Under the pieces are notes generated by a model that had not been told where the DNA came from, made no database searches, and saw nothing but the letters and a program-made list of their open reading frames with translations. From the NCBI GenBank assembly GCA_905235345.1, contig CAJOLO010000001.1, forward strand, positions 1 to 44,840: a stretch of 44,840 nucleotides of DNA, written 5' to 3'. This DNA is from an uncultured Lachnospiraceae bacterium. GTDB lineage: Bacteria > Bacillota > Clostridia > Lachnospirales > Lachnospiraceae. Made by a program: the position numbers and the translations under genes. Positions 39,696 to 42,600 of this stretch are shown here, piece by piece (within the stretch, counting starts at the first letter, position 1; each line of letters opens with the position of its first letter).

Positions 39696-42600
39696 ATGGC
39701 GTTAGTTGAGAGTGTATCTAAAGTATTAGACAGGATATGTGAAGAATATGATAAAGAGCGTAACTTAGGGGCACTGAATTATGACAGGGTTGATAAATAC
39801 CGTGAGATATGTGGGGATATTCTGACTGGCAGAATGAATGCGCTTTCCGATTCCGGCGAGATGGATTCTATGGAATATGCACAGTGCTCCTTTATGAAGA
39901 AAACGCTTGATAATGGTTGGACACCGAAAGATCTAAGTTTCTTTTCCAAGTTGTATGACGGGGTGCAGGCGCTGCCTGATGGACCGGAAAGAGAGAAGGG
40001 ACTTAATCTGTTTTCAAAGCTTGAGAATAACAAGACAGATACCTTTGAGAAACGTGGAGAAATGCTTGCTGATATCGCAGGCTTTGTCATTCCGGTTATG
40101 CATGGTCATCAGGATATATCGGACAGTCTGACTATGGAAATGAATGCTTTCATGAATGCAAAGGTGTCATATGCGGAGTACCCGGAAGATGCTAAGCTTG
40201 AGGAAGGTTTCGCCAAAGATGGAACATTTGATCCGCAATTAGTTGTATGGAATAAGGTTGACCTTAATATCAGACAGGCACTTTTGGTGGGTAGAGAGAA
40301 CCATTTGAAGCGCCTGGAGAATGAGAAGCAGAAGATTCGGAAAAAAGAGGATTATATAATGACTGAGATGTCGGATGATGCCCTGGAACATATAGAGTTC
40401 AATTATGGACAGAAGAAACGGGGAATCGTAAAAACCAACAGGCAGGCTATTAAGGAGGTTTTTGGTGAAGAGATATATGATGATATAGATGAGGCACATA
40501 AAGGAACAAAGGAAGAGCGTAAGGTCATCATTCATCATTCAAAAGGTAACCGTAAACTGCGGGATGGTGCCGATGTGTTAGAGTTTGACCTTGCAGGCTC
40601 GGGTTTTAATGAGGCGAGAAAGGAATACCGTGGGCAGCATGGTAATGCCAAGGTGCGTAACGTGTCCAAAGAAGAGCTTGAGCGGTCACTTCTGGTTCAA
40701 TATGGAAAAAAGGCTAAGGATAATAAGGGTAATACCTTTGAGAAGATCCGAGTGAAAGAGAAGGAAGTCAAGGTAGGTGATAAGACTTTTACAAAGAAAA
40801 GATATACCATATCAGGTCCCGACGTTGTTAATGGTTTGATTAATATCGGTAAGCACAGTATAGAAAACAACGTAGAATATGTCAGGGATTTTGCAAAGAG
40901 CCATATTAAGACTCTGTTTGAAAAGTGGGCAAGGGGCGAGGAGGAGCCCCATGACATACAGATCAATATTACGGGACACAGCAGAGGGGCTGTTGCGTCA
41001 GCAGAGAGTGTTATATACATCAATGACTGGATGAAGGACTATGCTAAGCAGCATCCGGAATGTGAGAAATATCTGTCACATGTTAAGTTTGATTTGTTGC
41101 AGAGAGACCCGGTTCCTGGTTTCGGAACAAGTATCAGATTCGGTTCAAGGGATCTCAGGGATATCCCGAATCTGAATGCAACCATGTTCTGTACAATGGG
41201 ACAGGAATGGCCGGATATTGCATTTCTTCCGGAAAATGTCAGAGGAGCGAAGCGTATTGTAATCGGTACCACAGAACACGGAATGGACTTAAGCCGTATT
41301 GATCTTTCCCAGATTAATCAGAAGGATGACGGACTATCACACCAGGCAGGCTTCTATAATGCAGAAAATGGTGAGTATTACAGAGGAAGTGGCATAGCGG
41401 AGATGCCGGAGGGTGTCTATATAGCAGATGACCGTAATAATGTGGTTCGCATTACAAGCTACAGTCAGATGGGAAAGCTTGTAAGCGCGGTACATGAAGG
41501 TGCTGAAAAAGACATGCAGACAGGGCGCGTCGGCATTATACATGAGATGGTGAGAGACTGGTTTGTAGATAATACCTTAAGCATCAGCTACCAGTCGGAA
41601 ACAGAAAGATATGCCATGCAGGATAAGGGCAAGGATGCCATGGATAAGATTATGAAGTCCAATGTGTCCCGACTGAAACCTGTTAAGAAGGAGATAGAAA
41701 AGCTTGATAAACTTATGGCTTCAGGTGCTTCCAAAGAGGAGATTATGGAAGCAAATAAGGGTCTTATCAAGGCATGTAAAGCCTATGTGGGAAAGACCAA
41801 AGTGCCCTGCACGGGGGACAGTGAGTACAGAATGAATCTGGTAAGCGATGTGCTCACATTTACGGAACGAGAGAATAATTACTTGGAAAGAGGTCTTGAT
41901 TCTAAGAAGGATATGACAAGGGAGGGCTCTCTTGACAGACAGATTGCGAGGGAGGAGAAACGCCTTGCAAATGACAAGGACATCAAGATCATGATGGATG
42001 ATGCGGCTAAAGCATGCAGGAATTCCCTAAAGGTACTTAGCGAGACGGGAAAGGGCAAGAGCAACAGTGCCGAGTACGTGGACTTGGTAAAGGCGCTTAA
42101 GCTTGGTTCAACCCTTTCTCAAAACCGCAGTATAGATGATTATACAAGGATAATGAGCAATCTTAAAAGGGCAGCGGATACCTATGTGAAGACTCATGAG
42201 GGACTTCTTGTGGGACCGGTAAGTGATGACGGAAAGACACGATTAAAATATGCTCAGGTGATGTCAACGTATACCTCTGAGAATATCCAGGTTATGGATG
42301 AAAAGGCAAGGACTGTGGGTGACAGGTCTGCTTCCATAGACAGAGTCGTTGAGAAAAGGACGAATAAGATTGAATCCCTTAACATTCGTAAGAAGAACGG
42401 TAACACAAAGCTTACGGAAAGTGAACTGGTCAAAGAACAGTTAGAGGAAAAGATCAGGATTGAGTCCGACCGCTATGACAGGATAAGGCGGTCGGGTTCA
42501 AAGCCGGCACTTGCCATGAATAATGTGGAAATGATCGCTGCAAGGCTTGTGTATCTTAAGACTGTGGAGGAGGCTTGCCGGGAAAATGGATATGCCAATT

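Follow-up and report, generated by a model that had tools for sequence, protein, structure and literature searches.

The best-described proteins with which the hydrolase treated here can be compared are the Tle1 phospholipase toxins, DUF2235 (PF09994) α/β-hydrolases that serve as type VI secretion system (T6SS) effectors, and TleB, whose catalytic triad Ser240-Asp280-His347 has a spacing of 40/67 residues (PMC12421835). A further point of comparison is Lem25 (Lpg2422), a Legionella pneumophila effector translocated by the Dot/Icm type IV secretion system (T4SS), which carries an uncharacterised α/β-hydrolase domain with a triad of Ser144, Glu203 and His235 and has no known activity (PMC11696984). 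Here we describe a gene from an uncultured Lachnospiraceae bacterium (assembly GCA_905235345.1, contig CAJOLO010000001.1, positions 1 to 44,840 of the forward strand; this whole stretch of 44,840 nucleotides is referred to below as the window). A first-pass annotation, made from the letters alone, had noticed in the 1035-residue product of this gene a G-H-S-R-G nucleophile elbow followed by a D-P-V-P-G segment, and had likened both, at the level of motifs, to Tle1. The analysis reported below places the protein in a new α/β-hydrolase family of Gram-positive anaerobes that is remotely DUF2235-like, and whose accessory domains and genomic setting are likewise new.

Predicted catalytic residues and their conservation

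Within the reading frame of the gene, ggacacagcagaggg (40974-40988) encodes G430-H-S-R-G434, with Ser432 specified by agc at 40980-40982, and the stretch 41100-41120 (cag aga gac ccg gtt cct ggt) encodes Q-R-D474-P-V-P-G478; both motifs and the serine codon lie exactly where the first-pass annotation had put them. The frame is confirmed by the flanking peptides HDIQINITGHSRGAVASAESV and VKFDLLQRDPVPGFGT. The peptide TTEHGMDL, which supplies His531, is likewise in frame, and VLEFDLAGSGFN is encoded in the same frame at 40575-40610 (the coordinates of all features are collected in Table 1). Residue numbers are counted throughout from the GTG at 39687, where the list of open reading frames (ORFs) begins a + strand frame of 1038 aa (39687..42803); subtracting 3 converts them to the numbering from ATG 39696. 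Since the homologues of the protein begin with M-A-L, and since this ATG is preceded, at a gap of 8 nt, by an AGGTGA ribosome-binding site, the real product as read from the sequence is 1035 aa long, the length given in the earlier annotation.

On its own, a G-x-S-x-G motif is unremarkable: the large ORFs of the window, which encode 14,245 aa, contain the bare pattern 6 times, or 0.42 times per 1000 aa. What is decisive is conservation, which gives the motif its meaning. A word-index search for relatives yielded 27 full-length homologues (27-86% identity) from Lachnospiraceae metagenome-assembled genomes (MAGs), in the alignment of which G-H-S-R-G and V-P-G do not vary and D474, H531, D539 and H552 are near-invariant. 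When the domain (aa 215-650) was used as a profile in an exhaustive search, 410 cluster representatives (50% identity clusters) were recovered at E ≤ 1e-3, 193 of them at E ≤ 1e-30, with lengths from 205 to 2433 aa.

Positions were counted across the wider family in ~165 aligned domain copies taken from 50%-identity clusters. The earlier annotation had held that its proposal would fall if the serine varied among homologues, and had left the acid and the histidine of a triad to be located. Ser432 is kept in 164/165 copies, flanked by Arg433 (165/165) and Gly434 (164/165). Position 474 is acidic in every copy scored (164/164: 156 Asp and 8 Glu), and the valine and glycine of the D-P-V-P-G motif that it opens are retained in 162/164 and 164/165 copies, respectively. 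The candidate histidine, His531, is kept in 164/165. A further invariant element lies upstream of the elbow, where Gly304 and a Ser or Thr at 305 are each present in 157/157 copies. The order nucleophile, acid, histidine is that of the α/β-hydrolase superfamily and is conserved family-wide. Taken together, because the catalytic positions are near-invariant across ~165 divergent domains, the pattern is, at the level of sequence, the signature of an active Ser-acid-His enzyme and not of a chance motif.

Predicted structure

An AlphaFold2 model of the full-length protein, built on the 27-sequence alignment, reached a mean predicted local distance difference test score (pLDDT) of 89.5 and a predicted template modelling score of 0.86; the domain modelled alone gave a pLDDT of 86.5. 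Three parts can be distinguished in the model: a helical N-terminal domain (1-~215), an α/β core (~220-632) and a helical C-terminal domain (638-1018) with a disordered tail behind it. Strand 424-431 precedes and helix 433-455 follows Ser432, at a local pLDDT of about 95, Asp474 closes strand 466-473, and His531 comes after strand 523-527. The strand, G-x-Nu-x-G turn and helix that define the elbow in the α/β-hydrolase superfamily are all present. From the letters alone the first-pass annotation had proposed just this arrangement of strand, G-x-S-x-G and helix, together with a D-P-V-P-G strand; the models contain both, the second strand bears the acid at its end, and the α/β-hydrolase fold, in the absence of which the proposal was to be abandoned, is predicted at a pLDDT of 86-90 with a canonical elbow. 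A long β-hairpin is inserted within the catalytic domain at aa 350-375.

Foldseek searches of the PDB with the domain model placed Lem25 (4m0m) first (E 7.5e-5, probability 0.99), followed by Tle1-EAEC (6sjl, E 1.8e-4, probability 0.97; 6ski, E 1.1e-3, probability 0.93) and by 4o5p (E 4.7e-3, probability 0.51), which we take to be the Tle1 of Pseudomonas aeruginosa. With the full-length model, Tle1-EAEC was again recovered (6sjl, E 0.04, probability 0.98; 6ski, E 0.044, probability 0.90) and TleB (9j3f) ranked third (E 0.18, probability 0.35). Lower ranks were occupied by generic lipases and esterases, with Rossmann-like GTPases as background, and the matches in BFVD were viral esterases, lipases and other α/β-hydrolases.

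Relationship to DUF2235 and other described families

The first-pass annotation had proposed an affinity to DUF2235/Tle1 and a Pfam comparison with DUF2235 and Lipase_3 as a check. Family membership did not follow: the Pfam DUF2235 model gave no match for aa 322-604 at E ≤ 10, and Lipase_3 (PF01764) matched the elbow only, at E = 0.12 and 12.7 bits against a cut-off of 22. Membership in the class 3 lipases was rejected, the similarity being below the Pfam cut-off and restricted to the elbow. Among 33 diverse family members, Pfam returned only one APH and one TCAD9 match, both outside the domain. PADLOC gave no match to the target or its neighbours, so that nothing points to a known anti-phage defence system. 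Every family member that was looked up is named "hypothetical" or is unnamed, including the source names of 10 distant clusters, and the literature on GHSRG and on Lachnospiraceae T4SS effectors yielded no description of the family.

The affinity itself stood when profiles were compared. For this comparison tle1 of E. coli 042 was located and its clade collected, all members of which belong to PF09994, and divergent DUF2235 proteins encoded on plasmids of Aeromonas, Pantoea, Paraburkholderia and Ralstonia were added. Alignment of the hydrolase family (93 sequences) to this diverse DUF2235 alignment with hhalign gave a probability of 69%, P = 4.4e-5 and a score of 44.2, against scores of 12-18 (P 0.2 to 0.7) for controls in which the DUF2235 alignment was reversed or its columns were shuffled. 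Against the narrow Tle1-EAEC clade the probability was 30% and 6%, and rose with the diverse alignment; the global mode of hhalign was uninformative.

Four motifs fall into register in this comparison: A-G304-S305-G with D-G-T-G of FFDGTGNN, G-H-S-R-G-A with G-F-S-R-G-A, D-P-V-P-G with D-T-V-A-A, and His531 with the histidine of P-G-x-H-S-D. The elbow variant G-H-S-R-G-[AG] matches GFSRGA column for column, including the arginine (165/165), and the acid-strand variant [RY]-D-P-V-P-G, 42 residues past the serine, is aligned to FDTVAA. For the FFDGTGN and PGxHSD[IV]GGGY motifs, only G-[ST]-G (G304, S/T305, G306) and the histidine align, with low posterior confidence and differing flanks. Triad spacing is 42/57 in the hydrolase and 48/65 in Tle1-EAEC. 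Taken together, these sequence and model comparisons indicate that the family is a distinct, unannotated and remote relative of DUF2235, and a non-member by the PF09994 model.

Accessory domains, shared module and basic tails

The C-terminal helical domain has no match in Pfam or NCBIfam and is confined to the long Lachnospiraceae subfamily; many distant family members are ~450-600 aa long and contain little beyond the catalytic domain. In the N-terminal domain lies a module of ~85 residues ("[NH]GW[TS]PxDL…LY") that is common to the 993-aa protein encoded immediately upstream, where it occupies aa 279-370 (hhalign probability 92%, E = 6e-7). The relationship is seen only with profiles; a BLASTP comparison of the two sequences (1038 and 993 aa) was not significant. 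A hidden Markov model (HMM) of the module also matches neighbours of family members that are not hydrolases themselves, namely an 809-aa protein in L004, proteins of ~1150 aa in L001, L005 and L034, and L023 (loci are numbered as in the survey described below). The shared helical module may serve these proteins in recognition or docking.

No hydrophobic segment is present in the 1035-aa protein (maximum Kyte-Doolittle 19-residue score 0.88), which therefore has no signal peptide or transmembrane helix; likewise, no hydrophobic segment, signal peptide or transmembrane helix was found in the 473-, 193- and 993-aa products of the ORFs upstream. Together these ORFs and the hydrolase gene form a run (34474-42803) of four consecutive soluble hydrophilic proteins (473, 193, 993 and 1035 aa) without a family match. 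Net charge over the last 30 aa is +5 for the hydrolase, +8 for the 993-aa, +5 for the 473-aa and +2 for the 193-aa protein, and most other proteins of the window are acidic. The first-pass annotation had described the hydrolase as a signal-less protein with a basic tail, and on both points the measurements agree with it. Substrates of VirB/D4 systems carry an unstructured, positively charged C-terminal tail, a trait that the tail of the hydrolase fits (pLDDT <50, net charge +5). The tails of close homologues carry +4 to +9. In the family as a whole just 42% have a tail of at least +3, which makes the tail weak evidence for the effector class.

Genomic context

All substantial ORFs of the window are on the + strand, and the hydrolase gene is the 3' end of a co-directional cluster of T4SS and partner-switching genes (Table 1). 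The 1384-aa VirB4-like protein has a hydrophobic N-terminus. The 44.8-kb window yielded no relaxase, and the T4SS may be non-conjugative. Scattered among the T4SS genes is a complete partner-switching set, consisting of a STAS protein, an RsbW/SpoIIAB-type kinase and a SpoIIE/PP2C phosphatase, which together with the histidine kinase and response regulator suggests that the secretion system is gated post-translationally. Between the kinase and SpoIIE genes (28547-32704) are encoded an LPG_synthase_C protein (aminoacyl-phosphatidylglycerol synthase C-terminal) and then a 1047-aa major facilitator superfamily (MFS) fusion; this pair adds a lipid-related theme to the cluster. The cluster also encodes a 2548-aa protein (17711-25357) whose sole Pfam match is PLAT/LH2, a lipid- or membrane-binding domain, at aa 1554-1646, and whose C-terminus is Thr/Glu-rich and repetitive (…TTETTTEVTTEATAE…). 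The gene downstream of the hydrolase encodes a PF09818 P-loop protein; since none of the other family members examined has a homologue of it nearby, it probably lies outside the cluster.

Table 1. Positions of the hydrolase gene, its parts and the neighbouring genes in the 44,840-nt window.
Feature	Coordinates	Strand	Basis
Hydrolase gene	39696..42803	+	ORF, ribosome-binding site, homologue starts
Helical module, aa ~71-154 ("NGWTPxDL…LY"), in N-terminal domain	39897..40148	+	AlphaFold2 helices, hhalign
Predicted α/β-hydrolase catalytic domain, aa ~220-632	40344..41582	+	AlphaFold2 pLDDT 86-90, Foldseek, profile search
D301-L-A-G304-S305-G306 loop after strand 296-302, candidate oxyanion-hole loop	40587..40604	+	Conservation
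Predicted nucleophile elbow, G430-H-S432-R-G434	40974..40988	+	Conservation, AlphaFold2, alignment to GFSRG of Tle1
D474-P-V-P-G478, predicted catalytic acid	41106..41120	+	Conservation; aligns with D-T-V-A-A of Tle1
His531 (TTEHGMDL), candidate catalytic histidine	41277..41279	+	Conservation; aligns with His of PGxHSD in Tle1
C-terminal all-helical domain, aa 638-1018	41598..42740	+	AlphaFold2 secondary structure
Disordered lysine-rich basic C-terminal tail	42741..42800	+	pLDDT <50 for residues 1022-1038
Upstream 993-aa soluble helical protein, basic tail +8; module at nt 37534-37809	36700..39681	+	hhalign
LytS-type histidine kinase and response regulator	937-3114	+	Cluster annotation
T4SS core genes, whole span	3259..14820	+	Pfam
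T4SS pilin-like	3259-3747	+	Pfam T4SS_pilin 2.3e-9
VirD4 coupling protein	4014-6038	+	Pfam T4SS-DNA_transf 4e-53
VirB4-like ATPase in 1384-aa protein	10666-14820	+	TraG P-loop 2e-17, aa 582-920
STAS-domain protein	14888..15220	+	Pfam STAS E = 2.4e-14
HATPase_c_2 (RsbW/SpoIIAB-type) kinase	27890..28456	+	Pfam E = 9.5e-22
SpoIIE/PP2C phosphatase	32701..34356	+	Pfam E = 9.9e-48
Downstream gene, ABC_ATPase/MRB1590-type P-loop protein	42838-44592		PF09818 E = 6e-120

How far this setting recurs was surveyed in 49 loci of homologues, taken with flanks of up to 10 kb. Close relatives of the hydrolase locus retain the local gene order. At a distance of no more than 10 kb from the hydrolase, 9/49 loci have a kinase homologue and 8/49 a SpoIIE homologue. 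Three close relatives (L001, L005 and L034) share the adjacent partner-switching genes and have no T4SS gene within their 10-kb flanks. The 23-kb contig CAMPAP010000004.1 (L031/L032; only 33% identity) encodes, in this order, hydrolase A, SpoIIE, the kinase, a response regulator, a histidine kinase, hydrolase B, STAS and VirD4, and is an independent occurrence of the gene combination found in the window; two hydrolase paralogues here flank the SpoIIE, kinase, response regulator and histidine kinase genes. L003 has an arrangement like that of this contig. In L020 the hydrolase, STAS and kinase genes are adjacent, and STAS homologues adjoin hydrolase genes in both L020 and L032. Homologues of the window's 728-aa and 993-aa proteins are found in L017, L035 and L054, and L015 has LPG_synthase_C and MFS homologues ~6 kb from its hydrolase homologue. 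The linkage to T4SS and partner-switching genes recurs in several lineages and is not universal.

Several further features of the loci were recorded. Antisense ORFs such as 40697-41023 (-), 41039-41272 (-) and 39779-40090 (-) are compositional artefacts in Lys/Glu-rich genes, and the most frequent "neighbour" clusters obtained when loci were clustered were rejected as artefacts of such antisense ORFs inside the gene itself. In L027 the hydrolase paralogues are arranged in tandem (4465-8907 and 9323-13666; 1481 and 1448 aa). Distant copies of 575-667 aa (L038-L048, e.g. L043 9320-11047) come from MAGs labelled Prevotella, Paludibacteraceae, Selenomonadales and Oscillospiraceae. The neighbours in L043, the one locus of this subgroup that was annotated, look Firmicute (GGDEF/EAL, NlpC/P60, PucR), and the bin labels are for that reason probably unreliable. 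An uncharacterised protein of ~750-790 aa is a conserved upstream neighbour in this subgroup.

Discussion

On balance we think it probable, if only somewhat better than even, that the protein is a working Ser432-Asp474-His531 α/β-hydrolase, Tle1-like, that acts on acyl esters of membrane lipids and is likely a cargo of the T4SS. The motif, its conservation, the predicted fold and the remote homology are established by the results above, and substrate, secretion and target are inferred. Judging from the fold, His531, oriented by Asp474, would activate Ser432 at the strand-turn-helix elbow, and the oxyanion of the acyl-enzyme would be stabilised by the backbone after the serine (Arg433) and by the invariant Gly304-Ser/Thr305 loop. 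The chemistry would be cleavage of acyl esters of membrane lipids, of the phospholipase A or lipase type; by analogy, such an ester is the most probable substrate because Tle1 and TleB are the only characterised relatives. As to its role, the enzyme would be an exported cargo of the adjacent T4SS and would act on the membranes of another cell. The case for export is circumstantial. It is attractive because of the repeated occurrence beside T4SS, partner-switching and giant-protein genes, the shared module, the basic tails and the absence of a Sec signal, and an effector role is plausible.

Several observations weigh against this reading. Within 10 kb, the majority of the homologue loci have nothing in common with the window and lack T4SS and partner-switching genes, several clearly lie in housekeeping surroundings, and a reading as effector or toxin rests on synteny that is missing from most of them. 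To our knowledge, protein substrates of Gram-positive T4SSs are barely documented. No immunity-like or small downstream neighbour is conserved across the 49 loci, in agreement with the first-pass annotation, which had seen no obvious small immunity gene behind the hydrolase. As for the enzyme itself, the full protein has no Pfam match at E ≤ 1, neither the whole protein nor its sub-regions match NCBIfam, and HMM searches of the PDB, whether started from the sequence alone or from two profiles of the family, produced nothing beyond noise and a match to the elbow of PLA1 (E = 0.72). The hhalign probability against DUF2235 is just 69%, and the relationship to Tle1 is remote, since the Foldseek TM-scores are low (0.15-0.27) and the root-mean-square deviations high.

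A fuller scenario can be put forward tentatively, as a proposal well short of probable. In it, rumen Lachnospiraceae would have a chromosomal, non-conjugative T4SS whose substrates would be the 1035-aa protein and the neighbours that share its module (the 993-aa ORF and the giant proteins of related loci), a system gated by the STAS, RsbW-like kinase and SpoIIE proteins and by the two-component system. The "NGWTPxDL" module, the basic tail or both would serve as recognition signal, and the target of the hydrolase would be the membranes of rival bacteria or of rumen protozoa.

The same enzyme may instead serve the lipid economy of its producer, as a non-secreted lipase or phospholipase that releases fatty acids or remodels the membrane, possibly under partner-switching control, an explanation that we regard as possible rather than probable. 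It is consistent with the lack of a signal peptide and of a conserved immunity gene and with the many homologues found among housekeeping genes. Lipid-related genes also recur in the neighbourhood of family members: DegV/FakB-type fatty-acid-binding genes lie nearby in L001/L002/L005/L006, L004 and L019, LPG_synthase_C and MFS genes are present in the window and in L015, and L003 has Acyl_transf_3. The distribution of the family, which is overwhelmingly from rumen Lachnospiraceae, including the isolates NE2001 and YSB2008, points the same way; this group includes the classic lipolytic, fatty-acid-scavenging Butyrivibrio. However, the large helical N- and C-terminal domains, the shared module, the basic tails and the clustering with T4SS and giant-protein genes would be unusual for a metabolic lipase, and an unregulated phospholipase in the cytoplasm would be self-toxic.

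A substrate other than a membrane lipid, which would make the active Ser-Asp-His hydrolase an enzyme that deacylates or cleaves proteins, or an esterase of plant or cell-wall polymers, appears unlikely: the characterised relatives recovered by the fold and profile searches are all phospholipases (Tle1, TleB and PLA1), and the four-motif register is specific to DUF2235. This explanation nonetheless draws on the substrate promiscuity of the α/β-hydrolase fold, on a sequence likeness to lipases that is confined to the catalytic motifs, and on the occurrence of GHSRG-type elbows in chlorophyllases and in feruloyl or phthalate esterases as well. Lem25, the top structural match, is itself without known activity (PMC11696984).

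A G-x-S-x-G present by chance, or as the relic of a dead enzyme in a structural helical protein, would suit a bare motif expected ~0.4 times per 1000 aa and a domain that no family model matches, and it is effectively excluded by the near-invariance of Ser, Arg, Gly, Asp/Glu and His in ~165 divergent domains, as well as being at odds with a confident fold with a canonical elbow and with registered remote homology to an active enzyme family.

With this analysis, an anonymous set of "hypothetical" proteins becomes a family with named catalytic residues that comprises ~410 clusters (50% identity), mostly from rumen and gut Clostridia. The family has no Pfam, NCBIfam or PDB coverage, and the remote homology that links it to the Tle1 phospholipase toxins can be tested. 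Should the enzyme prove to be a phospholipase or galactolipase, it would be a candidate for lipolytic activities of rumen Lachnospiraceae that are long known and genetically poorly assigned. If it is exported by the T4SS, it would be among the very few known protein effectors of a Gram-positive T4SS, accompanied by a candidate module for recognition and by a control circuit of the partner-switching kind, and the question would be open to direct genetic tests in cultured relatives such as strains NE2001 and YSB2008.

Comparison with known systems

TslA, a lipase toxin of Staphylococcus aureus, is reportedly secreted by a type VII system and is said to be a Gram-positive lipase-type effector that lacks a signal peptide and has its catalytic domain linked to a long helical export domain. 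The window differs in that it contains no type VII secretion genes (EssC, WXG100), no LXG match and no lipoprotein immunity genes.

Class 3 lipases of the PLA1 type (7x0d, 7x0c) have in common with the hydrolase a G-H-S-x-G-A elbow behind a hydrophobic strand and were recovered as weak Foldseek matches. The HMM similarity to class 3 lipases and PLA1 is also weak, covering ~50 residues (E = 0.12 and 0.72, below thresholds), whereas the position of the acid and the other motifs do not match.

With Lem25 the hydrolase shares a proposed Ser-acid-His triad, a multi-domain build with helical parts and, on the side of the hydrolase by gene neighbourhood in the window, an association with a T4SS. In contrast, sequence similarity to Lem25 is not detectable and the triad spacing differs. 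The system that translocates Lem25 is a type IVB system of a Gram-negative intracellular pathogen, and Lem25 offers no hint as to the substrate.

The hydrolase and Tle1/DUF2235 both have an α/β-hydrolase core with the acid on the strand directly after the nucleophile helix, a G-x-S-R-G-A elbow, a D-[TP]-V strand and, aligned with lower confidence, a G-[ST]-G loop and a later histidine. Their triad spacing is similar, and both have a helical domain after the catalytic domain and no signal peptide. The hydrolase nevertheless has GHSRG where Tle1 has GFSRG, DPVPG in place of DTVAA and D-x-A-G-S-G in place of F-D-G-T-G-N, and it lacks HSDIGGGY. It has in addition an extra N-terminal strand and hairpin, a long β-hairpin insertion and a large N-terminal helical domain. 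In genomic setting the two differ too: there is no VgrG, PAAR, Hcp or Tli-type lipoprotein immunity gene in the window that would indicate linkage to a T6SS, and the hydrolase, a protein of Clostridia, is linked to T4SS and partner-switching genes instead. In the tentative scenario outlined above, the T4SS would be a protein-effector system of a Gram-positive commensal, with a family of lipase toxins convergent in use with the Tle1 toxins of the T6SS.

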